From Candidatus Thorarchaeota archaeon (GTDB taxonomy: Archaea > Asgardarchaeota > Thorarchaeia > Thorarchaeales > Thorarchaeaceae), in NCBI GenBank assembly GCA_029855935.1, contig JAGSHN010000017.1:1-64000 (forward strand): 64,000 nt of DNA, in the 5' to 3' direction. The notes below the pieces were generated by a model. The model was not told the DNA's origin, ran no database searches, and saw only the letters and a list, made by a program, of their open reading frames with translations. The translations under genes were made by a program, and so were the position numbers. How positions within the stretch are numbered: position 1 is the first letter of the stretch; each line of letters begins with the position of its first letter. Of this stretch, positions 6,176-30,081 are shown one piece after another.

Positions 6176-7675
6176 TCAGCCAAACAGCTGGCTTGCCGCT
6201 ATGTTGGCATAGTCGAGGACGATGCTGGGATTGATGAAGAGGACTAGGACACCAATGACACCAAGCGTGGCGGCAACAAGCGGTCCACGCGCAAGGCGCA
6301 GTCGCTCCGCGTCCTCAGGAGGGGCCATATAGCACACCCTAAGGACACGCAAGTAGTAGCCGAGCGACAGGACGGAGTTCAGAGTACCTATCAGCGCGAG
6401 CCACCACATCCCGACCTCGATTGCACTTCCGAAGAGGAATATCTTCGATAGCAGCCCAGCAGTCGGAGGCATCCCTGCGAGCGAGAGCATCAACACCGCA
6501 AGCAAGCCAGAGGCGAATGGGGCTCGTGAGGACAGCCCCACAAGCTCGTCATACGTGACCTGACGTCTGAGGCGAACCGTCAGCGCCCAGACGAGTATGA
6601 AGGCTGAGGTCTTCATCAGCGCGTGAACGAACGCGTGAAACATCGCGGCTGCAGCGCCGAACTGCGTACCGACAGCAAGACCGATGAACAGATAGCCCAT
6701 CATCGCGATGCTGGAGTACGCAAGCATGCGCATGATGTTCTGCTGACGAAGTGCCAGAATGTTGCCTATCAGCATCGTCAGGATTGACACAAGGACGATG
6801 AGGGGCATCCACTGCAGTCGCACGACGATGAACCCGACGATCATTATCCGCATCAGCGCACCCACACCAGCCTTCTTCGTGCCGCCCGCCAGGAATGCTG
6901 CGAGACTCCCGTCCGCGGAGCTGTACGTGTCCGGCACCCACATCCAGCCCGGAAAGGCTCCTATCTTGAAGCCAAAGGCGATGACAAAGAGCACCATTGC
7001 CAAGAGGGATGTGGCCACTGCAGACAGCTCGAGCGTGGGCGAGGAGAAGTACGACTGGAGCGCCGCTCCGATGGCCGCTATGTCCGTCGTCCCGGTGAGT
7101 CCGTAGAGCAAGGCGATACCGAACAGCATCAGCACCGTGGCGAGCAACCCCATCACGAAGTACTTCACCGCACCATCGACGGCAGCCCGACTCGGACCAA
7201 GCGCGGCAAGGACATAGGTCGGCATCGACATCAGCTCCCAAGCGAGGAACAGTGCCACAAGGTCGGTCGCCATCACGGTCCACATCGTGCCACCAATCGA
7301 GATCAGCAGCAACGAGTGAAACGTGGCCCGGTCGCCATAGAAGGTCGTGCTTGAGAGCAGCACAAGGAAACCGACAACCAGGATTATCCAGATGAACAGG
7401 TCGGCAAAGTGACTGCGCGCGAAGAGCCCGCCAAAAGAGGACCCGTAGACATCATTGTCGATGAGGACGGTCTCCAGCCCTGTGAGCAACAGGCCAATGG
7501 CACTGACAGGCAGTGGATTTGTTCGCTGACCGACAGCGAGAGCAATCACGCCAAAGGCGATAATGGTGAAGACGGGCACCGACCCGAGCCAGTCGGCAGG
7601 GATGTTACCTACAAGCCACTGTGTAAACGGAGAGAACACTGTTCTGACGAGTTGAGCAAGGACCGACAGTATCAC
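6176..7675 (-). CDS. nuoN: Complex I-like antiporter subunit N
   Basis: WELMSMPTY, AVKYF, GFKIGAFPGWMWVPDTY, RMLAYSSIA, SLAGMPP; many TM helices. Confidence 0.9.
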   Translation of the reverse strand: MILSVLAQLVRTVFSPFTQWLVGNIPADWLGSVPVFTIIAFGVIALAVGQRTNPLPVSAIGLLLTGLETVLIDNDVYGSSFGGLFARSHFADLFIWIILVVGFLVLLSSTTFYGDRATFHSLLLISIGGTMWTVMATDLVALFLAWELMSMPTYVLAALGPSRAAVDGAVKYFVMGLLATVLMLFGIALLYGLTGTTDIAAIGAALQSYFSSPTLELSAVATSLLAMVLFVIAFGFKIGAFPGWMWVPDTYSSADGSLAAFLAGGTKKAGVGALMRIMIVGFIVVRLQWMPLIVLVSILTMLIGNILALRQQNIMRMLAYSSIAMMGYLFIGLAVGTQFGAAAAMFHAFVHALMKTSAFILVWALTVRLRRQVTYDELVGLSSRAPFASGLLAVLMLSLAGMPPTAGLLSKIFLFGSAIEVGMWWLALIGTLNSVLSLGYYLRVLRVCYMAPPEDAERLRLARGPLVAATLGVIGVLVLFINPSIVLDYANIAASQLFG

Positions 7676-9192
7676 GGGGTTGCACCTCCAGTCACGAGAG
7701 TCACAAAGGGCGCGGTCATCGACAGTATCAGGTCAGGCCAGAGGCCCAGCAGGATCACCGGTACCAGCAGGAGGACTGGTGCGATGAGGTCACGCAGCGG
7801 GGCATCGTGAACCTCGGCCTCAGGATCGGGGTCGGAGAAGACCATCCTGTTGAGGGTCCACAGCATATAGCCGACCGTCAGGAATACTCCCAGAGTGATG
7901 AACGCCGTCCAAATGTACACTGGCACAGAACCGAGCAGTGTGAAGAACTCTGCGAGGAAACCACTGAAGCCAGGCAGACCGAATGCCGCAAGCGCACCGA
8001 GGATGAACACTGTCGAGAGGCGGGGCGCAGTACGACCGAGCCCCTTCACCTCAGGGATCTGTCTGGTGCCTGCAAGATGCTTGACCTCGCCAGCCACGAT
8101 GAACAATACTGAGATGATGACACCGTGGGAAAACATCATGTAGATGGCTCCCTGCAGGGCGAGAGCAGACCCGACAGCGACACCCAGGAGCACCCATGCC
8201 ATGTGGTTGATTGAGGTGTACGCCACCATGCTCTTGAGATCCGACTGGGCCATTGCGACGAAGGCCGCGTAGATGCAGGTGAAGATTGCCAGCACGGCGA
8301 ACACGACGCTGAAGACAGAGAAACCCTCTGGGACCATCCACACACCAAGCCTCAGAAAGCCATAGCCGCCCATCTTCAGCAGAATACCGGCGAGTATCAC
8401 GGATCCGGGTGTAGGCGCCTTGACGTGTGCCCACGGGAGCCAGTTGTGCAGAGGCCAGACAGGGAGCTTGACGCCCGCGCCGAAGAACACGGCTATGGAG
8501 AACCACATCTGAATGTCGATTGGCAGGCCGGAGGCACGAAGGACAAGCATGTCAAAGGTGTACAGTCCGGACGCGAAGTACAGGACAAAGAAGCCGATCA
8601 GCATGATGGCCGAGCCGAAGTGCGTGTAGATGAAGAACTTGATTCCAGCGTGCTGGCAGCCCTCCTCGCCCCACCTGCCGATGATGAAAAACATCGGGAT
8701 GAGCACGAGCTCCCAGAAGATGAAGAAGCTGAGCAGGTCAATCGAGAAGAACACACCGAGCAGGCCGGTCTGAAGCATCAGAAGGAGCATATAGTACAGA
8801 TTCCGGGACCGTTCAATGTGATTGGAACTCAGTGCAGCAGCAAAGACCACTATGTTGGACAAGAGAGCCATCACAACGGAGAGGCCGTCTGCACCGAGAT
8901 AGACCTGCACGGGAGTTGTGTGACTGTCTATCTGCATCGTGCCTAGAACAAAGTTCCACAGTAGGCGCATGCCAGCATTCGGCTCGCTCGGGTCAAACGT
9001 GGGAGAGAAGGTCGCCATCAGAGCAAGAGCTAGGACCAGTTCGATGAGGGTCACGAGTAGGGCGACCGCCCGAGAGCCTCGCTCTCCAGCGAGGAACGCG
9101 ACAACCGCTCCGAAAAGGGGGAACAGTGTGAGGAACGCAAGGGGATTACCGGGGATCATTGACATCAGCATTGAGGCGAGTTCTTCGAACAT
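7672..9192 (-). CDS. nuoM: Complex I-like antiporter subunit M
   Basis: FWELVLIPMF, KFFIYT, VKLPVWPLHNWLPWAHVKAPTPGSVILAGILLKMGGYG, GFLAEF. Confidence 0.92.
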   Translation of the reverse strand: MFEELASMLMSMIPGNPLAFLTLFPLFGAVVAFLAGERGSRAVALLVTLIELVLALALMATFSPTFDPSEPNAGMRLLWNFVLGTMQIDSHTTPVQVYLGADGLSVVMALLSNIVVFAAALSSNHIERSRNLYYMLLLMLQTGLLGVFFSIDLLSFFIFWELVLIPMFFIIGRWGEEGCQHAGIKFFIYTHFGSAIMLIGFFVLYFASGLYTFDMLVLRASGLPIDIQMWFSIAVFFGAGVKLPVWPLHNWLPWAHVKAPTPGSVILAGILLKMGGYGFLRLGVWMVPEGFSVFSVVFAVLAIFTCIYAAFVAMAQSDLKSMVAYTSINHMAWVLLGVAVGSALALQGAIYMMFSHGVIISVLFIVAGEVKHLAGTRQIPEVKGLGRTAPRLSTVFILGALAAFGLPGFSGFLAEFFTLLGSVPVYIWTAFITLGVFLTVGYMLWTLNRMVFSDPDPEAEVHDAPLRDLIAPVLLLVPVILLGLWPDLILSMTAPFVTLVTGGATP

Positions 9193-9193
9193 C

Positions 9194-11422
9194 TCAGATC
9201 ACCCCCAGGGAGACGAACAGCATAATCAGGAACAGCACGAGGCCGAATATGACGACGGCCACGTAGTCGTTGATGCGGCCTGTCTGAATCTCCTGACTCT
9301 CATCAGATACTCGGTAGCCGGCAGTGCCAATACCCTCAGCGAGCCCGTCAACCACGTGGTCATCGAACCACCGGAGCCTTGTGGAGGCGCCCTTGGCCGC
9401 ATCTGCCGACTTGAAGTCGATGCCGTCGATGATGTGGTCATCAATACGCGCTCTGTACCAGTTGACGAAACGCAGGAACTGATAGAGAATCCAGTAGTAC
9501 AGCTCGTTGATGTACCACCTGTGGCGGAGGAACGTGTGGACCCTGCGCAACAGACCTCTCTCACCGACAACGTTGTTCGGCCGGTCAGCATTCTTGATGT
9601 AGAGTACGTAGCTGGGAACAGCACCAAGGAAGAGCGCGCCGACGGTGAGCGCAAACGGGAACAGCCCCGTGGTGAACTTCGCGACAATCATCTCGGTGAG
9701 GACCTCGGTCCACATCTCCATCGTCAGCGGACCCTCCTCTGCCAGTATCGCCTGCACGAACGGGTAGACCAGAAAGGCGACCACAGTGAAGGCCGCAAGG
9801 AGATACAGCGGGACCATCATGGCAGGACCGGGGTCGTGGGGTACTGCGTGATGATGTCCGGCCTCCTCATCTAGCGGACCGGTCTCCTCCTCACTGTGCT
9901 CTGTAGAGTGCGCAGCCTCAAACTTCGGCGGACCATAGAATGTCAGGCCCATCAGTCGGATACTGTAGAAGATGGTGCAGGCGGCGGCGAGGACCGCAAA
10001 GGCGAACAAGATCCACCCGAGAGTCTCGTGTAGGGCCAGCTCGTACGAGTACTCAATGATCGAGTCCTTCGACCAGAAGCCTGAGAACGGAGGAATACCG
10101 GAGAGGGCGAGGACACCGACCCACATCACCTTGAATGTCTTGGGCATGTACTCTTTCAGACCGCCCATCTTGGTGACGTATTTTGAGTGGATGGCGTGAA
10201 TGACTCCTCCCGAGGCGAGGAACAGCAGCGCCTTGAACGCACCGTGGCTGATGACGTGGAGTATTCCGGCCGCGAAGGCTGGCTCATAGTGTGAGAGGAG
10301 ACCGCCAGTGCCTATCGCCAGCATCATGTAGCCGAGCTGACTCAATGTTGAGAACGCGAGGATCTGCTTCAGCTCGTTGGAGACCATTCCCATCGTGGCT
10401 GTCATCAGAGCAGTGATTGCACCAATGATTGCAACGATCGTAAAGAATGACGACGCAGCCTCAATGCCTACGAGCTGAAGTGGTGAGAGGAGAGCCTCAC
10501 TGTGGGAGACCTCCGAGGCCGAGGCGATCGTGACGAGAAACCGTGCAGTGATGTAGACACCTGCCTTGACCATAGTCGCCGCGTGGATGAGCGCGGAAAC
10601 CGATGTCGGGCCAGCCATCGCCTCGGGGAGCCAGACCTGCAGCGGAAACTGACCGGACTTTCCGATGGCCCCTGCAAAGATCAGCAGGAATGTGGGCAGG
10701 ACAAGTCCCGTGGCGGCCAGCACCTGCCACCAGTTCTGATAGTTCTCGGCCATCAATGAGAACGAGAAGGTGCCGGTGAAGGCGTAGAGGACCAGAATGC
10801 CACCGAGCATAAAGGCGTCACCGATGCGCGTGACAATGAAGGCCTTCGTACCGCACTGCGTGTTGTATTCGCCCTCGGTCTCATATTGGAGCAGTGGATT
10901 GGAGTATTCAATGCCGTCAGGCTCCCTCTCCGGTGGATTTCTCTTGTCATTCCAGAAGCCGATCAGTCCGTAGGAACAGAAGCCCATTATCTCCCAGCCG
11001 ATAAAGGCGATGAGGAGGTTGTTGCTGATGACGAGTGTGAGCATCCCACCGCCAAAGACGAGCATCAGGAAGAAGAACCTGTCACGGTCCTCCTCACCAG
11101 CCATGTACTCTGTGGAGTAGACGTAGATGAGGAAGCACAGCGTGCTCGCGAGGACCGTCATGATGACGGACAGTGGGTCTAGGAGAACCTCGAAGTTCAG
11201 CCCGAGCGACGGAATCCACGGCCAGCTGGTGGGACCCTTAGGAGAACCTATGTCGTAGAGCAGCGACCACGCGAGGATCATTGTGACGCCCATGAACAGC
11301 GCTGGTGTCCAGTCTCGAAGACGGTCGCTGAAACGTCCAAATACGGGGACGAGCAGCGCACCCACGAAGGGCAGCACGAGGAGGAGATAATATGGTAGTC
11401 CGAACAGCATCTCTTGGCTCAC
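9194..11422 (-). CDS. nuoL: Complex I-like antiporter subunit L with elongated lateral helix
   Basis: WEIMGFCSYGLIGFW, GKSGQFPLQVWLPEAMAGPTSVSALIHAATMVKAG, FSGFWSKD, QTGRINDY. Confidence 0.93.
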   Translation of the reverse strand: MSQEMLFGLPYYLLLVLPFVGALLVPVFGRFSDRLRDWTPALFMGVTMILAWSLLYDIGSPKGPTSWPWIPSLGLNFEVLLDPLSVIMTVLASTLCFLIYVYSTEYMAGEEDRDRFFFLMLVFGGGMLTLVISNNLLIAFIGWEIMGFCSYGLIGFWNDKRNPPEREPDGIEYSNPLLQYETEGEYNTQCGTKAFIVTRIGDAFMLGGILVLYAFTGTFSFSLMAENYQNWWQVLAATGLVLPTFLLIFAGAIGKSGQFPLQVWLPEAMAGPTSVSALIHAATMVKAGVYITARFLVTIASASEVSHSEALLSPLQLVGIEAASSFFTIVAIIGAITALMTATMGMVSNELKQILAFSTLSQLGYMMLAIGTGGLLSHYEPAFAAGILHVISHGAFKALLFLASGGVIHAIHSKYVTKMGGLKEYMPKTFKVMWVGVLALSGIPPFSGFWSKDSIIEYSYELALHETLGWILFAFAVLAAACTIFYSIRLMGLTFYGPPKFEAAHSTEHSEEETGPLDEEAGHHHAVPHDPGPAMMVPLYLLAAFTVVAFLVYPFVQAILAEEGPLTMEMWTEVLTEMIVAKFTTGLFPFALTVGALFLGAVPSYVLYIKNADRPNNVVGERGLLRRVHTFLRHRWYINELYYWILYQFLRFVNWYRARIDDHIIDGIDFKSADAAKGASTRLRWFDDHVVDGLAEGIGTAGYRVSDESQEIQTGRINDYVAVVIFGLVLFLIMLFVSLGVI
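9344..9442 (-). repeat. 26-codon internal duplication in the NuoL amphipathic helix
   Basis: DDHIIDG (first Asp codon 9442-9440) and DDHVVDG (9364-9362) are exactly 78 nt apart; DNA gatgaccacatcatcgacggc vs gatgaccacgtggttgacggg. Confidence 0.8.
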
Positions 11423-11423
11423 C

Positions 11424-12935
11424 TCACGGAACTATGTTCAACAGGCCCTGCGTGGCCCCGGCGATGACGTGTACGGCGACATCTGGAAAGACACCGAAGA
11501 ACACAATCAGCGCACCGAGCAACACCATTGGAATTGTCATCGACCTCGGCGCGTCCCTCACCGACTCAAGGTTGGTCGGCAGCGGGCCAAGGAACACCTT
11601 CATCACGAAACGCAGCATATAGCCAGCACTGACGATTGTGCTGGATACGGCAAGAATAGACAGCACGAAGAACGGCATACTGCCAATTCCTGCAGGCCCG
11701 AGAAGAGCAGCCTGAAAGCCGCCATTGAACATCATCCACTCACTGGCAAATCCTGAGAGCGGTGGCACTCCAGCGATGCTGAACGCCCCAACAGCCGCTG
11801 TGAATGCAGTTACCGGCATCCTGTTGGAGAGACCTCCCATCTCTTCGATGTTTCGAGTCCCGGTCTCGTGAATCACCGCGCCGGCGGTCATGAAGAGCAG
11901 CCCCTTTGAGAAGGCGTGATTGATGAGATGGAACAGACCGCCCTGCAGGCCGTACGAGGCCATTACACCGAGAGCGAACAGGACGTATCCCATCTGCGAG
12001 ACAGACGAATACGCCAGCAGCCTCTTGATGTCCTTCTGTGCAAGCGCCATCAGACCGCCATAGAACATCGTGAGAACACCCAGCACGCTCACCCAGAACG
12101 ACAGGGCCTGCGCTGCGGCACCGAGCATGATCACTCCGAACCTGACGAGGGCGTATGCACCAGTCTCAATCATCGCACCTGACAGGAGTACGGACACTGG
12201 TGTCGGGGCCTCGGCGTGGACTGGCGGGAGCCACCAATGGATTGGAAACACCGCCATCTTGACGAGAAAGCCAGCTGCCAGGAGTATGAATATCAGCTTC
12301 ATAGTGCTCAGAGCCATTTCTGATGTGAGGATCACACCGATGTCGGTCATTACAAAGGAGCCGGTGATGGCGTACAGTAGAGCGAATCCCGCAAGGATGG
12401 CCAGCGCACCTGACTGAGTGTAGAGCCAGAACTTCATCGCCGTGCGCTTGCGGGTCTCTGGAATGCCCCAGAACAGAATCAGGAAGTACGACGGGACGAG
12501 CATCAGCTCCCAAGCCATGAAGAACTCCACAAGGTTGGTCGCCAGTGTGACCCACTGCATACCCATTATGAAGAACAGAAGGTTGGAGAAGAATGTCCCT
12601 CTGTTCTCTGTGTGGCTCGTGTAGCCGATGGCATAGATCACGGAGAGAAAACCCAGGATAACAACTGCAAACGTGATTGGGAACGCAACGCCGTCGAGTA
12701 GAAGACCAAAGCTGCCCAGCACTGAGGACCACTCGACGACCTCCATTATGGGCTCATTGAAGACGACTATGTGGTAGAATGACGGCAACATCAAGAGCAT
12801 TGACAGGCCGGAGAAGACGGCGGCTGCAGTGCCAGCACGTTGCTCCAATGCTCCACGAAAGATGTAGATGAACAGTGCGCCGAGGAACATCACTATCAGT
12901 GATAGTGACATCAATGAGAATCCACTCAACAGCAT
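11424..12935 (-). CDS. Second NuoM-like (M2; MrpD/HyfB-like) antiporter subunit
   Basis: AWELMLVPSY, KFWLYT, VKMAVFPIHWWLPPVHAEAPTPVS, DIKRLLAYSSVSQMGY, GFASEW. Confidence 0.88.
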   Translation of the reverse strand: MLLSGFSLMSLSLIVMFLGALFIYIFRGALEQRAGTAAAVFSGLSMLLMLPSFYHIVVFNEPIMEVVEWSSVLGSFGLLLDGVAFPITFAVVILGFLSVIYAIGYTSHTENRGTFFSNLLFFIMGMQWVTLATNLVEFFMAWELMLVPSYFLILFWGIPETRKRTAMKFWLYTQSGALAILAGFALLYAITGSFVMTDIGVILTSEMALSTMKLIFILLAAGFLVKMAVFPIHWWLPPVHAEAPTPVSVLLSGAMIETGAYALVRFGVIMLGAAAQALSFWVSVLGVLTMFYGGLMALAQKDIKRLLAYSSVSQMGYVLFALGVMASYGLQGGLFHLINHAFSKGLLFMTAGAVIHETGTRNIEEMGGLSNRMPVTAFTAAVGAFSIAGVPPLSGFASEWMMFNGGFQAALLGPAGIGSMPFFVLSILAVSSTIVSAGYMLRFVMKVFLGPLPTNLESVRDAPRSMTIPMVLLGALIVFFGVFPDVAVHVIAGATQGLLNIVP

Positions 12936-13367
12936 TCAACGAAACCTCCTGCCTCGCCATTCAAGCGGCTCGCGTTCCAGTGTCTCGATTCTCTCTGGGT
13001 CGTAGTGCAAGGCCTCACGTGACGGCTCGCTCAGGTCGACCACTGGAGTGTGGAACAGGGCATTGAACCGGCACGCCTCCACGCACAGGCCACAGAAGAT
13101 GCACCTCGTGTAGTCGAAGTAAAGGGCGGCGTCCTTCTCGTACTTGCGGTCGCTCTTGTCGATGCGGATGGCCACGACCGGGCACGCGCGGACGCACTGA
13201 CCGCACGCCGTACAGTTCTCTCGAATGTGTATGTGGCGGCCACGTGTGCGCTCCGGGTACTCGCGGTCCTCAAAGGGATAGAAGTACGTGAAGGGTCGTG
13301 AGAACGTCTGACGCACGATGTGTTTCAGCACGCGAAAGATATCGCCCAGAACTCTAATCATTCCCAT
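12936..13367 (-). CDS. nuoI: Complex I-like 2x[4Fe-4S] subunit I
   Basis: YPFE, RTRGRH, CTACGQCVRACP, DYTRCIFCGLCVEAC; start at ATG 13367 after a GGAGG. Confidence 0.92.
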   Translation of the reverse strand: MGMIRVLGDIFRVLKHIVRQTFSRPFTYFYPFEDREYPERTRGRHIHIRENCTACGQCVRACPVVAIRIDKSDRKYEKDAALYFDYTRCIFCGLCVEACRFNALFHTPVVDLSEPSREALHYDPERIETLEREPLEWRGRRFR

Positions 13368-13371
13368 CTCT

Positions 13372-14529
13372 CTATCCTCCTCCTGCGAGAATGCCAGCGA
13401 GCCCCGGCACATACGCCAGCACGAGCAGCGCGACTATGATGTTCAGCATTGACAGCGGGAGGAGATACCTCCAGCTGTACTTTACTATCTGGTCCTGTCG
13501 AATCCTGTAGAAGGACGACGTAACGATGATCATCCCGAAGAGGACAACAAGGAACTTGAGGAAGAAGTTCAGGAACGGCGGAAAGCCGGGAACGCCGTAC
13601 TCGCCGCCGAAGAAGAGCGCCACGATAAGCGCGGAGTAGAGGACCTGCTTGGCGAACTCGGCAAAGTAGGTGAGCGTGAAGTAGACTCCCGAGAGCTCGG
13701 TCCTCCAGCCGAATATGACCTCCGAGTCCGCCACAGGGGCGTCAAAGGGCACCAACCCTATGCTGATGACTGCGGAGACGAGGAAGGTGACAAAGCAGAC
13801 GGGCAGCAGAACGACGTACCAGAGGTGCGTCTGGGCCTGCGATATCTGCAGCACGCTGAGCGAGCCTGCAAGAAGAGCGGGACCAACTGAGGACACTATG
13901 AGCGGTATCTCGGCCGCGAACTGGTTACTTGCCGCCCGAAATCCACCGACTAGGGTGTACTTCGAGCCGCTTATCCAGCCCGTCAGCAAAGAGATGACAG
14001 GCACGGCCGTCAGGAACGCGAACACGAGCACGAGGCTGACGGAGAGGTCGGTTATCACCCACTCGCTGGTCCACGGTACAAAGGCGAAGGGCGTGAGCAC
14101 GACTAGCAGTAGGAAGGACGGGAGAAGCCGATACATCCACCGCTTCGCTCCACGCGGGATGATTATCTCCTTCGAAATGAGCTTGATTGCGTCGGCGAAG
14201 ATCTGAAGGCCTCCGTACTTTCCGATGTGGAAAGGACCACGACGAGCCTGTACACGGCCCCACACCTTTCGTGTGAACCACACGTCAAAGATTATGAGCA
14301 TCAGGACGAAGACGAGACCGGGGAAGACTATTGCCTTGAACAGCAGCAGCCAGTTGTCTAGCGCGAGATTCCACGCCCAGACAAAGACACCCCAAGCCCA
14401 GTTGAACACGCCTACTGCCAGCGTGTATACCCAGACAATGATACCATGGATCCAGTCCGGGATTCCACGCAGCCAGCCAATGATGTCAATGTTGTCGAAC
14501 AGTTGCAACAGCAAGGCGTTCAATGTCAT
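13372..14529 (-). CDS. nuoH: Complex I-like membrane subunit H
   Basis: RKVWGRVQARRGP, GLQIFADAIKLISKE, PFDAPVADSEV, RIRQDQ; start taken at ATG 14529. Confidence 0.92.
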   Translation of the reverse strand: MTLNALLLQLFDNIDIIGWLRGIPDWIHGIIVWVYTLAVGVFNWAWGVFVWAWNLALDNWLLLFKAIVFPGLVFVLMLIIFDVWFTRKVWGRVQARRGPFHIGKYGGLQIFADAIKLISKEIIIPRGAKRWMYRLLPSFLLLVVLTPFAFVPWTSEWVITDLSVSLVLVFAFLTAVPVISLLTGWISGSKYTLVGGFRAASNQFAAEIPLIVSSVGPALLAGSLSVLQISQAQTHLWYVVLLPVCFVTFLVSAVISIGLVPFDAPVADSEVIFGWRTELSGVYFTLTYFAEFAKQVLYSALIVALFFGGEYGVPGFPPFLNFFLKFLVVLFGMIIVTSSFYRIRQDQIVKYSWRYLLPLSMLNIIVALLVLAYVPGLAGILAGGG

Positions 14530-14537
14530 CCCTCCGT

Positions 14538-17163: not shown

Positions 17164-17170
17164 CGTGAAC

Positions 17171-18025: not shown

Positions 18026-18040
18026 GTGATTCAGAATCAC
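18026..18040. promoter_or_regulatory. Perfect 7-bp inverted repeat (possible operator)
   Basis: GTGATTC-A-GAATCAC in the 860-nt intergenic region. Confidence 0.25.
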
Positions 18041-19857: not shown

Positions 19858-20199
19858 ATGGACAGAAGGCGCTACACCTACTACGTCATATTGTTTCTCG
19901 GACTTGTCCTAGTGAGCCTCTATTTTCTAGTACTCTATCAATGGGTGGGACTGAGCAGTCTTGCCTCGCTATTGCTTGTTGGCAGTGGTGGCCTGTTCAT
20001 CCTGCTCGCACTCGTTGCCCCCTTTGGCCGCTCTAGACCTGCAAGACTCGGACTCACTGCCTTGTGCGGTCTCATTGCTGGAACTCACGCATATCTCGAT
20101 ATCATATTGCTGCAGGGTCAGATGGGGACTGTGATGTTCATATGGATTGGCCTGGGCACAATGCTCGTCACTGCACCACTGCGATGGCTCAAAGAGTGA
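19858..20199 (+). CDS. Small 4-TM hypothetical membrane protein
   Basis: MDRRRYTYYVILFLGLVLV... four hydrophobic segments; ATTAAATA upstream at about 19803. Confidence 0.65.
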   Translation: MDRRRYTYYVILFLGLVLVSLYFLVLYQWVGLSSLASLLLVGSGGLFILLALVAPFGRSRPARLGLTALCGLIAGTHAYLDIILLQGQMGTVMFIWIGLGTMLVTAPLRWLKE

Positions 20200-20250
20200 T
20201 TCGATCTCATATTCCATTTCGCGGCAGTCAGCACGGCACGGGCCCAACCA

Positions 20251-20820
20251 CTACTCGGATTCGTCCCTCTTGCCCGTCTCGGCAGTCGACTCCTCAGTCC
20301 TCTCTATAGGCTCTCTCGCTTCTCCCTCTTTCTCACTGCCTCTCGTCTCCTCCGGCTCCTCCACGAACACCTCAACAGCCGAACGCACTGCTGGGCGTCC
20401 AGCGTACGAGAGTCTTGAGTAGTCAAGTAGGCCTGGCGTGACCGCATCCTCAAGAGGTGGTATCATTGCCAGACCGCCTGCCGTGACCAGAGCGCCGATG
20501 ATCCCCCAGAAGACGAGTCCAAGGCCACCGCCCCACTCGGCCGGCACAGACATAGAAAAGATTGCGTAGAACAGTGATGCCACAACGGAGAAGCCGAACA
20601 TCGTCGTCTTGGCCTTGCCGCGAACTGGTCGAAGGTATCCCACGTAGAGGAAGACCATCACCGGTGGCAGACCCAGCACGGGGAGGAGCACTGCGGTCAG
20701 GATGTTGAGCGTGATCGTACCAGTCAGCCACAGATAGCCAAAGCTGAAGTAGAACGCGCCCAGTATGGCCATTCCAAGCCAGACCATGCAGTAGTAGTCG
20801 GTGTCCTCTCGTAGATGCAT
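20251..20820 (-). CDS. 4-TM membrane protein with acidic C-tail, co-oriented downstream of the FAD-NuoB fusion
   Basis: Four hydrophobic helices; 22-nt gap with GGAGG after the fusion gene. Confidence 0.75.
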   Translation of the reverse strand: MHLREDTDYYCMVWLGMAILGAFYFSFGYLWLTGTITLNILTAVLLPVLGLPPVMVFLYVGYLRPVRGKAKTTMFGFSVVASLFYAIFSMSVPAEWGGGLGLVFWGIIGALVTAGGLAMIPPLEDAVTPGLLDYSRLSYAGRPAVRSAVEVFVEEPEETRGSEKEGEAREPIERTEESTAETGKRDESE

Positions 20821-20842
20821 CTCTCTATCTCCTCCCTGTGGT

Positions 20843-22783
20843 CTATCTCAGGAAGCCCATGGCATCCTGGTTCTCGTATTTCATCTGCCAGTGCGTCGTG
20901 CCAGCACGGATCTTGTTCTGAAGTATCAGATGGGCTCGTATGAAGTCTGACGGCTTCGGCGGGCACCCCGGTAGATAGACATCCACAGGAACGACCTCCT
21001 CGGGGTCCTTGACAAGAGAGTAGCCGTCCCAGAACATGCCGCCGCTCGCAGCACACTGACCGAACGATATCACAAACTTTGGCTCAGGCATCTGCTCGTA
21101 GATTCGGCGCAGCCTGGGCGCCATCTTCTTCGTCAGCGAACCGGATATCCACAGCACATCAGTCTGACGAGGACCAAACAGCGGAAGCATACCGAACCGC
21201 TCAGTGTCCCACCGTGGAGCCACAGCGGCGGACCCCTCGACCATGCAGCAGCCCAGACCGAACTGTACTGGCCAGGGACTGTGAGCACGACCCCATCGGA
21301 GAAGCCACTTGATCGGTGGCAGGTTCTGCAGCCACTTCAACACGATTGGCCCCATCCGGCCGAAGCCGTTCCTCAGCAGATCGTAGCCAAGCCACATGAA
21401 GTACTTGCCGACTCTGAGTACAAGAGGCAGCCAGTAGGCAAACACCTTCCCCGGGTTCGCCACCTCATTGGGGTCGAACTTGAGCTTGGCGGCACGAATC
21501 CGTGCAAGGCGCCTCTTGCCGAAGTACTGTGGAGCATAGTTCGCCAGCCAGATGCCGGTCGAATGAACGTGACCCCCGTGCCTCTGTGCAATCTTGAAGA
21601 CCACGAAGCTCTGAACCCAAGATAGCATGAAGCCGAACCGCCGCTCGTCCTCAAGGAAGTAGCCCATTAGCGTGACCCCGTTCTTCGATGTCACGTAGCC
21701 GTCCATGCCTGCCCGCGCTGAGGCCTGCTCGAACTGAAAGTCGTCGAGGATGAGCATCAGATTCTCCAATGGCGCAAAGGCCTGTCCGACGACCAGCGAC
21801 GGGCCGAGCTTCTTGATCTTCATTGGATAGAAGCGCTGCTCCCACTCGTGTTCCGCAACGTGCTCGTCGTAGACTTTGCCCTTCAGCTCCTTCGCCACCC
21901 TGCGTACAACCTCGAGGCCCTCCTCGGTCTCCTCATCGGAACCATCGTACGCAAAGAGCGCGACACAGTGATGAACGGGATAGGGATAGGGGCCCGGGCC
22001 CTCCCAGATCTCCTTCTTGAGGTCGACGTACTTGCTCTCCTTGAACTTGATTGTGTGTGGGAGCGGACCCTCCTCCAGAATCTTCTCGATTGCAAATGTC
22101 ATCAGGTAGTTCTCAGGAAAGCTGACGACGATGCACTTGATGGGGGTGAGAGCTTTGACCTTGAGCGTGACCTTGGTGATTATCCCCAGAATGCCCTCGG
22201 TGTCGCAGAACAGGTCGGTATCGCGGCTGCGCACAATTCGCCCATTGGGGAGGACCACCTCGACCTCCTCGACGTTCTCGTTGATGTTGCCGTACTTCAG
22301 CGAGCCGATACCGTCACCACCCTGAGCCACCCAACCTCCAACCGTGGCCGAGATTCCCGATGAGGGATAGGTGCGCAGGTCCAGTCCCTGACGATTGAGC
22401 TCAAACTGCAGGTGCGCCCAGGAGATTCCGGGCTCCACTGTGACCGTCAGGCCCTCGGGGTCGACACTCAACACGCGATCCATCCTACGCATATCAACAA
22501 TGATGCCGCCCTTTCTGGGAATCGCACCGCCGTAGCCTGAGGTGCCAGCGCCACGTGGGACAATTGGCACGCGCTCCTCATTGGCGAACTTGAAGAGCGC
22601 GACAATCTCGTCCACCGACTCGGGCTGCACAAGTGCATCAGGTTTGTTGTTCATCAGCCAGCCGACCTGCTTGGGCAGTGAACCTACATCCATACTGTGG
22701 ATGTGAAGCTCGTACTTCTCTGTGATCAGCCGGTCACCGAATATCGCTTTCAGGCGCTCCAATTGATCCTTCTTCAGTCCCAT
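20843..22783 (-). CDS. FAD-linked oxidoreductase (VAO/GlcD family) fused to a C-terminal NuoB domain
   Basis: N-part PRGAGTSGYGGAIP, ATVGGWVA, TEGILGIITKVTLK, DPNEVANPGKV; C-part GLGCCMVE, PRQTDVL, QMPEPKFVISFGQCAASGG, VDVYLPGCPP. Confidence 0.9.
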   Translation of the reverse strand: MGLKKDQLERLKAIFGDRLITEKYELHIHSMDVGSLPKQVGWLMNNKPDALVQPESVDEIVALFKFANEERVPIVPRGAGTSGYGGAIPRKGGIIVDMRRMDRVLSVDPEGLTVTVEPGISWAHLQFELNRQGLDLRTYPSSGISATVGGWVAQGGDGIGSLKYGNINENVEEVEVVLPNGRIVRSRDTDLFCDTEGILGIITKVTLKVKALTPIKCIVVSFPENYLMTFAIEKILEEGPLPHTIKFKESKYVDLKKEIWEGPGPYPYPVHHCVALFAYDGSDEETEEGLEVVRRVAKELKGKVYDEHVAEHEWEQRFYPMKIKKLGPSLVVGQAFAPLENLMLILDDFQFEQASARAGMDGYVTSKNGVTLMGYFLEDERRFGFMLSWVQSFVVFKIAQRHGGHVHSTGIWLANYAPQYFGKRRLARIRAAKLKFDPNEVANPGKVFAYWLPLVLRVGKYFMWLGYDLLRNGFGRMGPIVLKWLQNLPPIKWLLRWGRAHSPWPVQFGLGCCMVEGSAAVAPRWDTERFGMLPLFGPRQTDVLWISGSLTKKMAPRLRRIYEQMPEPKFVISFGQCAASGGMFWDGYSLVKDPEEVVPVDVYLPGCPPKPSDFIRAHLILQNKIRAGTTHWQMKYENQDAMGFLR

Positions 22784-23067
22784 ACGGTATCACGCCCGAG
22801 GTCAATGTGGGAGCCTTCGAAGACTCAGTTCCTGTCAGGCCTAGACCGTGAATAAAAAGATAGCGAGTCGGCAATAGTCGTCCGATTGTGCAGATACTCA
22901 GCAGGGTCATCCCCTCAGATGGGGCCCTGTCATAGGACACGATATTCAAACAAGTGGTTGAATAAAGATATAATGGAGCAGTCGTCGCATTAGGAAAACC
23001 TATTTACGTGGGCAAGGGCCGCTTTCCCCGGTCAAAGAACGACAACAGGTCAAAGAGGCAGGCCCCA

Positions 23068-24294
23068 ATGCACTTCGAGATGCTTGAACAGTACAACCTT
23101 CAGGACATGGCCTTCATCTGTGCCCAGTGCAGCTTCTGTCAGGTGGGTCACGGTGCGTGCCCGACCTACAAGGTCAAGCGCCGGGACAGCTACTCAGGCA
23201 AGGGCAAGATGATCATCGCACGAGCGCTACTTCAGGGTAGGCTCTCACCCAGCGAGGCACTGGAGGGTCTTCGCGATGCCGTGTTCGGATGCACCCTCTG
23301 TGGCGGATGTGAGGAGGTGTGTCAAGTAGACATACCCTTTGTCCAGATCTACCAACTTCTGCGTGGTGAGTTCCTCAAGCTGAACCTCTGGCCGGAGCAG
23401 CTAAAGATGATGAAGAAGACCCTGATCAAGACACGGAACGTGCAGGGCCAGCCGAACATCGACCGTGTGGAGGGATGGTCATACTGGCATCCCGATGAGG
23501 ATGCGCTCTTGGAGAAAGTGGGGCAGCCTGCGGAGACCGGGTTCTTCGTCGGATGCGGTTCATCATTCCGCGGTATTGCCATTCAGGCGACGATTGCCAC
23601 AACTCTGATTCTCGATGACGCCGGCATCGAATACACGCTTCTTGGAGAGGACGAGTGGTGTTGCGGAGCCCCGCTGATCATGACTGGCGACTTCGAGGGC
23701 GCGAAGGAGTTCGCTCTACACAACATCGAGGAGTTCCGCAAGCTCGGTGTGAAGCGGATTGTGACAAATTGTCCAGGCTGCTACAAGATGTGGCATCACG
23801 AGTATCACCAGCTTCTCGGCATTGATCACGAATTTGAGATCGTGTACGGTCCCGTACTCTACGCCAAGCTAGTAGAGGAGGGCAAGCTGGAGGGCAAGAT
23901 TAAGGACCTCCCGGTCTCGGTCACATTCCACGACCCGTGCGATGCTGGGCGCAACAGTGGCATCTATGAGGAGCCCAGAGTTGTACTGAAGAACATACCC
24001 GGACTCAGATTTGAGGAGCTTCCTCACAACCGGGAGAACTCGTACTGCTGCGGTTCAGGAGGTGTTCTGAGAGCACAGGACGAGGAGTTCTGTCTGAAGA
24101 TAAACGAGCTGAAAGTACGCGACATCGAGCAGACGGATGCGGACTGGGTGATCTCCGCCTGCCCGTCATGTGTGGACTTCATCAACACAGGACTACCAGA
24201 GGCCGGGTCTGAGAAGAAGTCCAAGGACCTCGCCGTGCTGCTTGCAGAGGCTCTCGGACATACCTGGGACGGACTCGACGACGTCTACGGCTGA
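23068..24294 (+). CDS. GlcF/HdrD-like FeS oxidoreductase (2x 4Fe-4S plus 2 CCG domains)
   Basis: CAQCSFC..ACP, CTLCGGCEEVC, FVGC/EWCCG/CPGC, FHDPC/YCCGSGG/ACPSC; start at ATG 23068. Confidence 0.9.
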   Translation: MHFEMLEQYNLQDMAFICAQCSFCQVGHGACPTYKVKRRDSYSGKGKMIIARALLQGRLSPSEALEGLRDAVFGCTLCGGCEEVCQVDIPFVQIYQLLRGEFLKLNLWPEQLKMMKKTLIKTRNVQGQPNIDRVEGWSYWHPDEDALLEKVGQPAETGFFVGCGSSFRGIAIQATIATTLILDDAGIEYTLLGEDEWCCGAPLIMTGDFEGAKEFALHNIEEFRKLGVKRIVTNCPGCYKMWHHEYHQLLGIDHEFEIVYGPVLYAKLVEEGKLEGKIKDLPVSVTFHDPCDAGRNSGIYEEPRVVLKNIPGLRFEELPHNRENSYCCGSGGVLRAQDEEFCLKINELKVRDIEQTDADWVISACPSCVDFINTGLPEAGSEKKSKDLAVLLAEALGHTWDGLDDVYG

Positions 24295-25331
24295 GGCGCC
24301 GGGGGAGGTCGCAGCAGAGTCCTGACTGCCAGCCCTACAAAGACGAGTAGCATCACAGCAACGAGAACGTATACCAGTAGTGGCGTCCTCATGTCAATCA
24401 CAACATAGCCAACCGTCAGGTACAGTCCCGTCAACAGATGGGTCATAATCGTCCCGGCGTTCGCAGGTATCATTCTCAGGGGCTCATCGTAATGTCGTCG
24501 TGCAGTCCTGATTGCAATGGCCGCGATAGGAACCGTGAGCAGACCATAGAGCTGCGTCCACGGAACAAGGCCAACGAACGTGAACAACACTATGACAGCA
24601 TAGGTGACGATCATCAGACCCGCATACACAGCTGATGCTCGCCTCCTACCCAGACGCACTACAGCCGTGTACTTGCCAGCAGCCCTGTCGCCCTCCATAT
24701 CTGGAAACTCATTGATGAACAACACCAGAGAGATGAGTAGTGCCACCGGGAGCGAGGCGAAGACTGGTTCCCAGTCAAGGGCCTGTGTCTGCACGAAGAA
24801 GGCTCCAAGCGTCATCAGGATGCCAAAGTTCAGCCCGATGAATATCTCTCCAATCCCCCGACTCACAAGCCTGACTGGGGGTGCTGTGTAGAAGAAACCA
24901 GATGCTGCACCAATCAGCCCAAGGACAACTATCACCCAACCGAGGTGGAGATAGAGGTAGAAGCCGATTGCCACGGCAATGCCGAAGAAGACGAATGACC
25001 CCGCGAGGACCTCGCCGGGACTCAACAGGCCCTCCTGTATCACCCGGCTGCCTCCACTGAAGGGTCGAATGAAACCCTCGTTGACGTTATCGGCGCCACT
25101 CTTGTAGTCGAAGTAGTCATTGGCGATGTTTGCGCCGAGATGCAGACAGGCGGCCGCCACAAGAGTGAGGAAGAAAAACCAGAGGTTCAGGCCGTGCGTC
25201 CGCTCCCAAGCAATTGCGGTTCCTAGCAGCACGGGAACGAGTGACGCCGTCAAGAAACTCAACCTCATCTCACGTATCCAGATTCGAAGCCTCCCGGGCT
25301 TCGGCTCTACTGGGGCTCTCTCGCCAGTCAT
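24285..25331 (-). CDS. menA: 1,4-dihydroxy-2-naphthoate prenyltransferase (MenA/UBIAD1-type)
   Basis: NIANDYFDYKSGAD, PFSGGSRV, FYTAPP, GIGE, NEFPDMEGDRAAGKYT. Confidence 0.88.
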   Translation of the reverse strand: MTGERAPVEPKPGRLRIWIREMRLSFLTASLVPVLLGTAIAWERTHGLNLWFFFLTLVAAACLHLGANIANDYFDYKSGADNVNEGFIRPFSGGSRVIQEGLLSPGEVLAGSFVFFGIAVAIGFYLYLHLGWVIVVLGLIGAASGFFYTAPPVRLVSRGIGEIFIGLNFGILMTLGAFFVQTQALDWEPVFASLPVALLISLVLFINEFPDMEGDRAAGKYTAVVRLGRRRASAVYAGLMIVTYAVIVLFTFVGLVPWTQLYGLLTVPIAAIAIRTARRHYDEPLRMIPANAGTIMTHLLTGLYLTVGYVVIDMRTPLLVYVLVAVMLLVFVGLAVRTLLRPPPAPQP

Positions 25332-25544
25332 TGTGGGTCGACGGAGCAGCAGGCGGGAAGAATAAAAGATTGATGGAACAGGGCCGGCATAGTAACGCAT
25401 TCGGGGTCACACCGCGCACGATCCCCTGGGCCTACACCAAGAGACAATGCCCTTCAGGGCGGATTCCACATTGTCCTCAGGACAAGTACTTTAAGAGGCG
25501 GTCGTCACGTAGCACTGTCGCCTGTTATCCGGAGAGGTAGCGTC

Positions 25545-26612
25545 ATGTCCGGCAGAGAGATGTCGACAGACAGGGATTCTCGCACCGAGTGCGACCAGCG
25601 CGACACGAGTCTCGCTGCCGGTTCCACAGGCCTGCTCACAATCGATGATCTCACCGCCGACGAGGAGTTCGGAGCAATAATATCGGCTATCAACACGGCG
25701 ATGGACGAGTTTGTTCAGAACCTATACGGAGAGCCTGCCTCACTCTATGAGGCGGCCAGACACCTGCTTGTTGCCGGGGGCAAGAGGCTCCGCTCTCTGA
25801 TTGTCCTCTTGGCGACACAGGCGGTCGGAGGTGACATTGAGGACGCATTGCCGTTCGCTGTAGCAATGGAGCTGGTGCAGACCGCCAGCCTTCTTCACGA
25901 TGACGTGATTGACGACGACGTCCTACGGCGAGGTGTCGAGACCGCACACAGAAAGTTCGGGACCAGAATTGCAATCCTCGCGGGAGACCTTCTCGTTGCA
26001 GAGGCGATGAGCCTGATTGGAGAGAGGGCGACTCCAGAGCTCCTCGCCATGATAGGAAAGGCGGGGATAATGCTGTGTGAGGGCGAGGCATCCGACTTGC
26101 TGATGGAGATCACTGATAGCGAGTCGGTCAGTGTGAGACGCTATCTGGCAATGGCGGAGAGAAAGACCGCATCACTTCTGCGGGTAGCGGCAGGTGTCGG
26201 GGCAGTGGTCGGAGGTGGTACGACAGAGCAGCGCGACGCTCTGATGGAGTACGCTCGGAAGATTGGTCTGGCATTCCAGATTCGTGACGATGTTCTGAAT
26301 CTGACATCAACTCCCGATGTGACAGGCAAGTCGGTCCTCTCAGACCTGAAGTGGAAGACCAGCAACTACGTGGTGATCCACTGCCTCGAACACTGCAGTC
26401 AGCCTGTTCGCGAGGAGTGCCTGAGGGCACTCGGATCCAACTCGTATGAGGACGTTCTCCGTGTCCTGGAGGAGTCCGGTTCCATAGCGCACGCGAATGA
26501 GGTGGCGTGGCGCTTGGCACGTGAGGCAAAGGCCGTCCTGAGAGGCGCAGACCTGCAGAAGAAACATCTTCTTGAGAGGCTCGCTGACTTTGTCGTCCTC
26601 AGGGCGCACTAG
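25545..26612 (+). CDS. trans-polyprenyl diphosphate synthase, probably medium/long chain
   Basis: GGKRLR, FARM TASLLHDDVIDDD-x2-RRG, KTASL, FQIRDDVLN. Confidence 0.9.
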   Translation: MSGREMSTDRDSRTECDQRDTSLAAGSTGLLTIDDLTADEEFGAIISAINTAMDEFVQNLYGEPASLYEAARHLLVAGGKRLRSLIVLLATQAVGGDIEDALPFAVAMELVQTASLLHDDVIDDDVLRRGVETAHRKFGTRIAILAGDLLVAEAMSLIGERATPELLAMIGKAGIMLCEGEASDLLMEITDSESVSVRRYLAMAERKTASLLRVAAGVGAVVGGGTTEQRDALMEYARKIGLAFQIRDDVLNLTSTPDVTGKSVLSDLKWKTSNYVVIHCLEHCSQPVREECLRALGSNSYEDVLRVLEESGSIAHANEVAWRLAREAKAVLRGADLQKKHLLERLADFVVLRAH

Positions 26613-26627
26613 GAACGGGACATGGTC

Positions 26628-27827
26628 TCAGAGAAGAAACATCAAAGCGCGGAGAAGAGTGCGGGAGGCAATGTCGACCGGTAGCGGGAGCCGGCAACGT
26701 ATAAGTTGTTCCAGCAGCCTGGTCCCAGCCAGACGCATGGTGACCTCCGTGACCGCATCCGTCGTCATCGCCTTGTCGGCAATGTGTCTGATGGACAGGG
26801 CTGTGTAGAGCTCACGGCCGAACTCCTGTTTCCACCCCTTCTCGTAGGCGCTCAGTGGGGTCCCGAACTCAAGATGGTTGACGATACTCTCGGCGGCTAT
26901 CTCACCGCCAATCAGCGCTGTGGGGATGCCACCGCCATTGGAGGCCATCACGTGACCTGCGGCGTCGCCGACAAGCAGTACACCTTCGTCCGAGTATGTT
27001 CGCTCGACGGGTCCATCAACAGGGATGAGTGCACCAATCTGTCGGACTACACGACCGCCCCTCAGACGTCGGGCCACAAAGGTATGGCTCAGGATGAACC
27101 GGTGCAGGTAGCGACGGGGTGGAACGCCCGGAGCGGCAAAGGCGGGGCGCAGCCCAAGTCCCACATTGGCCTCAGAGGGGCCCCTCGGAATCACCCAAGC
27201 GTACCCGCCTGGGGCCACAGAAGAGCCAAAGAACATTTCGACGACAGAGACGTCTGTGTCGACATCCGCAAGAGTCACCGAGGCGGATTGGCTCAGTTGG
27301 CTTGAGGGGTCTTTGTACTCCACCCCGATTGAGCGTGCCACCACTGAGACCGGTCCATCAGCGCCCACGACTACGCGTCCTCTTATCTCGCTGATACCGT
27401 CGGGTGTACGCACCAGGACAGTATTGTCCCTGTTCCTCCTGACAACCGTGTTGCACAGTCTCAGCTCGGCACCAGCATCCTCAGCAACCGTGACGAGAAA
27501 TGGGTCGAACCTCGCGCGGTCGATGATATTGGCGGAGAACCGGAACTCGTAGCGTCGGCCTCGAGGCGAGATGAGTCGGATCGTGCGCGTCCTGTCGAGA
27601 ATAAGGTGGCGTGGGACATCCGTCAGTCTGACGCCTCTTGGCGAGCGGGGGAACAGGTCCCCCATCTCAGATGGAGTGGGTAGCAGCTCGCCACAAAGGA
27701 CAGGCTCGCCGAGGGCTCTCCTTCGCTCAAGAAGGATCGTAGAGAGACCACGTCCTGCTGTACCAGCAGCCACAGTGGCGCCTGCTGGCCCTGCTCCAAC
27801 AACAACGACATCAAACGTCTCAGTCAC
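26628..27827 (-). CDS. Geranylgeranyl reductase family flavoprotein
   Basis: VGAGPAG, GADG, PGGYAWVIP, LVGDAAG, NGGGI. Confidence 0.9.
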   Translation of the reverse strand: MTETFDVVVVGAGPAGATVAAGTAGRGLSTILLERRRALGEPVLCGELLPTPSEMGDLFPRSPRGVRLTDVPRHLILDRTRTIRLISPRGRRYEFRFSANIIDRARFDPFLVTVAEDAGAELRLCNTVVRRNRDNTVLVRTPDGISEIRGRVVVGADGPVSVVARSIGVEYKDPSSQLSQSASVTLADVDTDVSVVEMFFGSSVAPGGYAWVIPRGPSEANVGLGLRPAFAAPGVPPRRYLHRFILSHTFVARRLRGGRVVRQIGALIPVDGPVERTYSDEGVLLVGDAAGHVMASNGGGIPTALIGGEIAAESIVNHLEFGTPLSAYEKGWKQEFGRELYTALSIRHIADKAMTTDAVTEVTMRLAGTRLLEQLIRCRLPLPVDIASRTLLRALMFLL

Positions 27828-30046: not shown

Positions 30047-30081
30047 AAGGTCAAGGCCGAAGGTGCGCGGGGGTTTTCTCA

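Follow-up and report, generated by a model that had tools for sequence, protein, structure and literature searches.

How does a complex I relative exchange electrons when NuoEFG are missing and its NuoB subunit is fused to a flavoprotein? This question is raised by a locus at positions 6176 to 27827 of a 64,000-nucleotide stretch (hereafter the window; contig JAGSHN010000017.1, C31 in our numbering) from the genome of a Candidatus Thorarchaeota archaeon (GCA_029855935.1; 2.97 Mb, 97% complete). A first-pass annotation of this DNA had proposed that the flavin adenine dinucleotide (FAD) domain replaces NuoEFG and feeds substrate electrons directly to cluster N2. Our analysis points to a different wiring, and we tentatively favor, at a probability of about 0.47, a four-pump ferredoxin-quinone complex that is tethered via NuoB to an FAD/Fe-S/CCG oxidoreductase and would be coupled to it by a prenylated carrier.

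The fusion is a 646-residue open reading frame (20843-22783) in which FAD_binding_4 (residues 48-185) and FAD-oxidase_C (218-447) are followed by Oxidored_q6 (513-617). In hidden Markov model (HMM) searches it passed the NuoB cut-off (TIGR01957, 175 versus 143 bits), its NuoB domain aligned best with complex I PSST/Nqo6, and the tandem-Cys motif GLGCC together with both other ligands supplies the four Cys for N2. We rejected an assembly chimera or annotation artefact, since the fusion is intact in dozens of genomes; about 45 full-length 646-residue homologues share 73-87% identity, and those that are named are nearly all Ca. Thorarchaeota. The break in one genome (G008) is a run of N, and a second broken copy comes from a genome (G050) with breaks in many genes. 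Six Oxidored_q6 matches were found genome-wide, with one other short, stand-alone match (C8:51886-52416); this candidate was rejected as the complex's NuoB, because it encodes a small subunit of the CxxC type and belongs to a distinct group 4 NiFe hydrogenase operon, whose large subunit carries both NiFe CxxC motifs. Judged from sequence, the fused domain is the complex's NuoB, as the first-pass annotation had claimed, and it is the sole complex-I-type NuoB in the genome. The hydrogenase operon (G000:C8:48617-52776, in the same genome) has no antiporters, and an unlinked three-antiporter Mrp-like cluster (C28:167283-173321) may serve as its membrane arm.

Around the fusion, Pfam and NCBIfam searches recovered every gene that the first-pass annotation had named, each in the place it had assigned. 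A tightly packed 11-gene operon on the minus strand, nuoA-J-K-C-D-H-I-X-L-M-N, runs from 17605 down to 6176. Upstream of it lie a small membrane protein, a 3-4 transmembrane (TM) protein, the fusion, a divergently transcribed Fer4/CCG gene, menA, a polyprenyl synthase, and a geranylgeranyl-reductase (GGR)-family gene:

6176..7675, minus: NuoN, antiporter-like, 499 residues (PF00361; NuoN clade, 100/100)
7672..9192, minus: NuoM, 506 residues, canonical charged residues (TIGR01972, 430 bits; NuoM clade)
9194..11422, minus: NuoL, 742 residues, lateral helix (HL) ~25 residues longer than in three-pump complexes
11424..12935, minus: fourth antiporter subunit X, 503 residues, NuoM/MrpD-like; TM8 Lys replaced by Glu (SGAMIETGAY)
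12936..13412, minus: NuoI, two [4Fe-4S] motifs
13372..14553, minus: NuoH; ERK changed to TRK, Arg preceding PFD lost
14538..15674, minus: NuoD; no NiFe site, His pair kept, quinone-binding Tyr replaced (RMCM)
15671..16195, minus: NuoC (PF00329)
16192..16509, minus: NuoK (PF00420)
16510..17217, minus: NuoJ (PF00499)
17171..17605, minus: NuoA, YECG loop; DVE changed to DVM (NCBIfam NuoA matches)
18464..19216, plus: DUF3782/PD-(D/E)XK gene
19858..20199, plus: small membrane protein, ~113 residues, conserved between nuoA and the fusion; no family
20251..20820, minus: 3-4 TM membrane protein
20843..21346, minus: NuoB domain of the fusion, about residues 480-646; four N2 ligands, tandem CC
21347..22783, minus: VAO-family FAD domain (residues 1-450) and amphipathic linker helices (452-501); motifs WxxRFYP, DER, and GGxxHSxGxW, no EHG
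23008..24294, plus: CCG protein, two [4Fe-4S] motifs and two CCG domains, HdrD/GlcF/TfrB-like
24285..25400, minus: MenA-type (dihydroxynaphthoate, DHNA) polyprenyltransferase
25545..26612, plus: trans-polyprenyl diphosphate synthase
26628..27827, minus: GGR-family flavoprotein, a possible side-chain reductase, one of ~12 paralogues

NuoA, B, C, D, H, I, J, K, L, M, and N are all present. NuoEFG are absent from the operon, and NuoF (PF01512) was not found in the genome. NuoD lacks the NiFe CxxC pairs, and the complex does not classify as a group 4 NiFe hydrogenase. HMM matches and inspection of the CxxC motifs bore out the membrane arm plus NuoC, D, and I with four antiporter subunits and neither NuoEFG nor a NiFe site, and the divergent 4Fe-4S/CCG protein on the opposite strand was likewise as described. 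The reported absence of FpoF was true of the operon; elsewhere the genome carries an unlinked FrhB/FpoF-like gene (C6:45879-46961), and no such gene was found in G012, a genome that has the complex. NuoI is likely the ferredoxin docking side, and its true start probably lies later than annotated, as the NuoI of relatives has 143 residues. The protein described as having four TM segments is indeed a membrane protein but has three clear hydrophobic segments by Kyte-Doolittle analysis; it is probably an accessory of the complex, because it stays next to nuoA where the locus is split (G018). The DUF3782 gene has short internal repeats, sits between nuoA and the fusion in this genome only, and was not seen at the matching position in relatives' loci; it is an insertion outside the system. 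Atlas searches returned generic names only.

Among 86 genomes of the family, a NuoD orthologue was present in 60 and the fusion in 59. The two occurred together in 54 genomes, the co-occurrence in relatives on which the first-pass proposal depended, and the genomes with only one of them are fragmented assemblies. Fusion and NuoD share a contig in 42 pairs, with starts within 7 kb in 39 of these, and a dozen loci that we inspected share the gene order, CCG-menA-synthase-GGR included. Genera g4, g6, and g12 are without NuoD, fusion, and CCG orthologue. These comparisons support the view that the locus represents one conserved system.

We then asked what the FAD half might do. Its fold is of the LDHD/LctD/ADPS type (TM-score 0.84 to LDHD by target length), with the lipid-substrate enzyme ADPS among the top matches. 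It has neither EHG nor HxGDGNxH and hence no 2-hydroxyacid metal site, meaning that the lactate/glycolate dehydrogenase active site is absent, and it falls far below the glcD cut-off (154 versus 568 bits). The motifs WxxRFYP, DER, and GGxx[YH]SxG mark a distinct subfamily. Of 80 relatives outside the Asgard archaea, 79 carry a Fer4-CCG part, nearly all fused in one frame, and two have the EHG motif. This family of FAD-Fer4-CCG fusions (~1030 residues; L138-L217) is found in Chloroflexota, Zixibacteria, Methanoperedens, and syntrophs and is without the 2-hydroxyacid active site; its members end in a Met/Pro-rich helical tail of no Pfam family, and MetV or another known domain was considered for the C terminus of the bacterial fusions and rejected, none being found. 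The window's CCG protein starts with a CAQC motif that it shares with these fusions. Because of this shared motif, we read the window's FAD and CCG genes as the two halves of that fusion protein, with NuoB apparently added at the split point. The genome carries six further FAD/CCG gene pairs (contigs C4, C10, C13, C16, C20, and C27 of G000), whose FAD proteins all lack EHG, and in Thorarchaeia most genes annotated as "D-lactate dehydrogenase" may be misnamed.

Complex prediction supported this pairing. Fusion plus CCG protein scored 0.76 against 0.00 for the best control, a mark reached by 58 of 80 solved complexes and by 2 of 110 mismatched pairs; at least 94% of contacts agreed between runs, and the partner's predicted local distance difference test (pLDDT) value was at least 84. 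All confident contacts fell on the FAD domain (including subfamily motifs at 319-330 and 379-381), none on NuoB, and on the CCG side all but one residue belonged to the ferredoxin (first Fe-S) domain. This pass may in part be due to likeness, since relatives naturally carry the two proteins as one fused chain. The FAD domain is therefore predicted to dock on the CCG protein and not on NuoB. Both five-Cys sets are intact in the CCG protein; among NCBIfam models TfrB matches it best, and a PDB search returned only EtfD and HdrB as its relatives.

The complex and the FAD module can also be found apart. Genus g2 has no NuoD orthologue; it has a 499-residue FAD protein that ends just short of the NuoB core and adjoins CCG-menA-synthase-GGR. 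The tail of this protein has no significant match to the NuoB N terminus (p 0.4-0.7), and the protein is sister to all fused forms. A Heimdallarchaeota-labelled metagenome-assembled genome (G400; L066, L067, L123) has the same NuoB-less four-pump operon; its NuoB (63% identical) is a free-standing protein encoded next to hypD on a separate contig. A close FAD orthologue was not found in this genome, which also has a second, orphan NuoD copy. In Ca. Borrarchaeum yapensis (L047/L043; also L130, L131), nuoABCDHIJK, with nuoB inside the operon, is followed by five antiporter subunits and, directly downstream, by an unfused FAD protein of this subfamily, CCG, an amine-oxidase-like flavoprotein, MenA, GGR, and prenyl synthase. 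Because the complex and the FAD module occur separately in these lineages, the FAD enzyme is a tethered partner and not an obligatory electron input. The partnership appears to exist unfused in a second Asgard lineage, and Borrarchaeum would offer an archaeal example of a five-pump complex I paired with this module.

The operon's four Proton_antipo_M subunits have 503, 742, 506, and 499 residues, and TM5 Glu, TM7 Lys, and the TM12 charge are kept in all of them. Subunit X passes the NuoM HMM (TIGR01972, 314 versus 264 bits) yet falls outside the 100/100 NuoM clade; by its place in the tree, it is not a duplicate of the neighboring NuoM. We measured the NuoL lateral helix as the span from a WxIN-type motif to QTG. 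This span was 52 residues in three-antiporter complexes (L089, L103), 77-78 in all thorarchaeotal and G400 four-antiporter complexes (77 in the window), and 105 in the five-antiporter complex of Ca. Borrarchaeum, a series that offers a clean natural ruler for pump addition. The difference between 77 and 52 residues matches the HL insertion of ~26 residues given for 2M complexes in PMC9040806. The longer helix shows that the fourth pump is built into the membrane arm, in line with the extra pumping capacity that the first-pass annotation had inferred. The NuoK of this genome keeps its second Glu (AAET), and 12 of 13 relatives have His (AAHT).

What reaction could drive such an arm? Using textbook potentials and 150 mV, we computed the ions that could be moved per two electrons: ferredoxin to menaquinone would support 4.6-5.7, and lactate, a typical 2-hydroxyacid donor of the VAO family, to menaquinone ~1.5, not five. 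Because of this difference, five-ion coupling fits a ferredoxin-quinone reaction and not direct injection from an organic donor. We consider direct injection of substrate electrons from the FAD domain into N2, in place of NuoEFG, very improbable. The covalent fusion, the lack of a NuoF in the genome, and the strong conservation speak for it, but the electron exit face of the FAD is taken by the CCG protein in the predicted complex, which is also its evolutionary partner, G400 has the complex with no FAD orthologue and g2 the FAD enzyme with no complex, and lactate-like donors would not pay for five ions. N2, moreover, lies buried at the NuoB/NuoD interface.

The genes, the fusion, the cofactor ligands, the helix extension, the linkage, and the separability of the modules can be taken as established at the level of sequence, and FAD-CCG docking as supported by modelling; we infer quinone coupling, ferredoxin use, stoichiometry, and electron direction. 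In the ferredoxin-quinone reading that we favor, the locus would encode a two-module membrane machine whose modules are joined by a lipid-soluble carrier. The first module, an 11-subunit complex I without NuoEFG plus the fourth antiporter, would shuttle electrons between ferredoxin, docked at NuoI, and a prenylated quinone bound at N2/NuoD, moving up to ~5 ions per two electrons. The second would be the FAD/2x[4Fe-4S]/CCG oxidoreductase of the widespread, uncharacterized family, split here into two genes. In complex I, a membrane-surface helix of NuoB lies near the quinone entrance. The linker helices 452-501 of the fusion are amphipathic (moment 0.47-0.66) and would lie on the membrane surface, leading into that NuoB helix and so joining the FAD half to the NuoB N terminus beside the entrance of the quinone tunnel; in the AlphaFold model of the fusion, the FAD domain is confident and the NuoB part poor (pLDDT mostly <60). 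Electrons could then travel, in either direction, along organic substrate, FAD, ferredoxin-type clusters, CCG clusters, quinone, N2, NuoI, and ferredoxin; the fusion would hold the two quinone sites near each other. To make the carrier, MenA, the prenyl synthase, and GGR might use a scavenged, DHNA-like naphthoate or another head group; the FLEET locus (PMC9888254) offers a precedent for prenylating DHNA that has been scavenged.

The carrier genes support this reading in part. MenA exceeds its HMM cut-off (TIGR00751, 117.8 versus 102.15), HMM scores led us to reject its identity as an archaeal lipid (digeranylgeranylglyceryl phosphate, DGGGP) synthase, and in Thorarchaeia, genus g2, and Borrarchaeum alike the module is bordered by menA, synthase, and GGR. 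The three genes had been named as menA, a long-chain prenyl synthase, and GGR; the genes are there, but "long-chain" is established neither by HMMs nor by the DDxxD-flanking residue, both polyprenyl synthases in the genome having a small residue five positions before the first DDxxD. The claim that the complex has its own prenylquinone genes held in that MenA is real, but a head-group pathway is missing and a menA orthologue also occurs in genera without the complex. The prenylquinone genes here seem to be the tailoring half only.

Several observations weigh against the ferredoxin-quinone reading. MenB, MenD (over cut-off), MqnA/D, and MenG were not found in this 97% complete genome, and MenG exceeded its cut-off in G012 only. 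In g6 and g12, menA orthologues sit next to carotenoid-like genes; there (L029, L030, L032), menA and prenyl-synthase orthologues end an apparent carotenoid cluster with CrtI/CrtB-like and UbiA-like proteins, judged from N-terminal sequence only. Non-Asgard FAD-CCG loci lie near menA in 1 of 80 cases and near NuoB/C/D-like genes in 1 of 80, and a general link of the FAD family to menA was rejected, none being found outside Asgard beyond that single case. The co-occurrence of fusion and NuoD follows kinship and so represents few independent events. The position of Tyr87 in NuoD is Met or Leu in all orthologues; Fpo, unlike this NuoD, keeps the quinone Tyr. Three further changes are lineage-wide: NuoB CCAxEM has become CCMx[DE]G, with Gly in place of the Nqo6 pocket Met, NuoH has TRK for ERK and has lost the R209 equivalent (the Arg before PFD), and NuoA has Met for E81 (DVE to DVM).

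These changes show a remodelled quinone pocket, as far as residues can tell, and remodelling is no proof against quinone binding. NuoD keeps its His pair (His38) and carries RMCM at the place of RxDY in complex I and RxCY in Fpo; related Asgard complexes are likewise without the NuoD Tyr. Its best solved-structure match is MbsL (Pyrococcus MBS, 6U8Y), and the three-Cys cluster of MBS is absent here (tandem CC, C-terminal Cys missing, His38 present).

The lost Tyr, the lack of head-group genes, and the presence of menA outside the system in g6 and g12 would also suit a quinone-free scheme of the Methanomassiliicoccus kind, in which the fusion recruits the HdrD-like protein to a headless complex to form a direct ferredoxin:heterodisulfide oxidoreductase and the prenyl genes are bystanders. 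Such a mode has been proposed for Fpo-like complexes with HdrD (PMC7374477) and for Fpo-associated HdrD/GlcD (PMC10667645). We judge it decidedly unlikely here, given the steady flanking of the module by menA, synthase, and GGR, a predicted CCG interface on the FAD domain, and an intact NuoD His pair and N2 tandem Cys. The missing head-group pathway and the altered pocket could also mean that the FAD/CCG enzyme, with MenA, synthase, and GGR, makes or modifies a membrane electron carrier and that the NuoB fusion only co-localizes it. The module does travel with prenyl genes in Asgard, and one archaeal relative adjoins UbiD and a 4HBT thioesterase; we find this rather improbable, as bacterial family members are near quinone genes in 1 of 80 cases and a 1:1 fusion to a core respiratory subunit better suits high-flux catabolism.

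A further way to read the altered pocket is that it suits a low-potential carrier in a forward chain: ferredoxin would reduce the complex, the complex a membrane carrier, and the carrier the FAD, which would act as a quinol-oxidizing replacement for the cytochrome b of HdrE and pass electrons via Fe-S to CCG non-cubane clusters and a heterodisulfide or persulfide. The intact five-Cys sets and the TfrB match of the CCG protein fit this, as do the FAD domain's lack of a 2-hydroxyacid site, its membrane helices, and the ADPS fold match; the Borrarchaeum and paralogous FAD proteins also end in hydrophobic segments. Against it, electron transfer from menaquinol or demethylmenaquinol to CoM-S-S-CoB is uphill, ferredoxin to heterodisulfide yields by our computation at most ~4.8 ions at 150 mV, and characterized FAD_binding_4 plus CCG pairs take their substrate at the flavin and oxidize it. 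We regard such a chain as unlikely. An equally doubtful proposal is that Thorarchaeia run one self-contained supercomplex: a four-pump complex I and a flavin/Fe-S oxidoreductase of a new class would share a private, non-canonical prenylated carrier, distinct from both standard menaquinone and methanophenazine. Quinone pocket and E-channel would have been remodelled for this carrier, and Borrarchaeum would hold the unfused five-pump version.

For the favored ferredoxin-quinone complex, then, which way might electrons run? Ferredoxin sinks are present (the group 4 hydrogenase on C8 and HdrABC/MvhD on C24), and a NarI-type cytochrome b, NrfD, or multiheme cytochrome that could re-oxidize quinol was not found in this genome. 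Because characterized FAD and CCG pairs oxidize their substrates, complexes with extra pumps have been proposed to work in reverse (PMC9040806), and these sinks exist, we slightly favor reverse electron transport, in what is close to an even call, over ferredoxin-driven respiration of an organic acceptor. In the reverse mode, ion inflow would drive electrons uphill from an organic substrate of high potential to ferredoxin, which would then serve H2 production or C1 metabolism.

Thorarchaeia are commonly drawn as fermenters with hydrogenases; this locus suggests that most of the family has a membrane carrier and a pump of high stoichiometry. Attachment of a module via NuoB at the membrane surface, and not via NuoI/NuoG, would be a way to extend complex I that we did not find described, and the widespread FAD-Fer4-CCG family is annotated as lactate dehydrogenase yet lacks its active site. 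In G041, G006, G018, and G010 (L035, L036, L019, L022, L013), arrays of FAD/CCG paralogue pairs, PNPOx/DUF7530, and cytochrome c maturation-like genes lie in or beside the locus, and G010 and G018 have there a protein with 6-7 CxxCH motifs; these genes hint at extracellular respiration in some species. Elsewhere in the window, the regions 27833-32058 and 36422-39031 hold two beta-helix (NosD-like) surface-type proteins and mutS, the latter being the conserved neighbor beyond GGR in relatives, and there are two very long minus-strand open reading frames of 1945 and 2421 residues (49015-54852 and 55148-62413).

How much of this is new? The first-pass annotation knew of no described complex of this composition. 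Four-pump complex I and GlcD/HdrD-linked Fpo-like complexes are known (PMC9040806, PMC10667645), and headless complexes have been described in Asgard (PMC9723677); the fusion itself appears to be new and is where we place the novelty. Our literature searches did not find a NuoB-flavoprotein fusion, although a mention in Spang et al. 2019, Chadwick et al. 2018, or supplements is possible, and the consulted part of an Asgard complex I survey (bioRxiv 2024.07.04.601786) contains no such fusion.

Compared with Fpo, the F420H2:phenazine oxidoreductase, the thorarchaeotal complex has no conserved FpoF input (the FrhB-like gene is unlinked and was not found in G012), and its NuoD lacks the RxCY Tyr. 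Pyrococcus MBS (6U8Y, PMC7684303) gives the best solved NuoD match and likewise lacks Tyr87, with the first Cys of the former NiFe motif kept in both; the thorarchaeotal N2 differs in having four Cys (tandem CC), with His38 kept and the C-terminal Cys lost, and the arm is of the NuoLMN type. The Listeria/Lactiplantibacillus FLEET locus (DmkA/DmkB and Ndh2, PMC9888254) likewise combines redox genes with MenA-like and prenyl-synthase genes of its own, in a host supplied with external DHNA, but its enzymes are different and the thorarchaeotal genome has no extracellular transfer genes. With GlcD/GlcF, LctD/LDHD, and YdiJ the flavoprotein shares its fold and the FAD, Fer4, and CCG architecture; it stands apart by falling far below the family cut-offs, by lacking EHG/HxGDGNxH, and by a motif set shared with the uncharacterized family in Chloroflexota, Zixibacteria, and Methanoperedens.

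The nearest relatives in overall design are two. Four-pump ("2M") complex I and the five-pump Complex_I_3 of Ca. Manganitrophaceae, as described in PMC9040806, resemble the thorarchaeotal complex in the fourth antiporter, an HL insertion of ~25-26 residues, and a proposed ferredoxin-quinone (reverse) electron transport. In the thorarchaeotal complex, by contrast, the additional subunit does not group with the NuoM clade, nuoB has left the operon and become joined to a flavoenzyme, residues of the quinone pocket have changed, and the locus adds a CCG partner and MenA genes. The headless Fpo-like complex with HdrD in Methanomassiliicoccales and Fpo-associated HdrD/GlcD in Bathyarchaeia, Methanomethylicia, and Korarchaeia (PMC7374477, PMC8407382, PMC10667645) also have no NuoEFG/FpoF in the operon and have linked GlcD-like and HdrD-like proteins. 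In Thorarchaeia the link is covalent via NuoB, the flavoprotein has no lactate/glycolate site, prenyl-quinone genes are attached, and there are four pumps. The link between GlcD/HdrD and Fpo-like complexes has so far been drawn on genomic grounds only; the covalent fusion would provide physical evidence for it and makes it testable.

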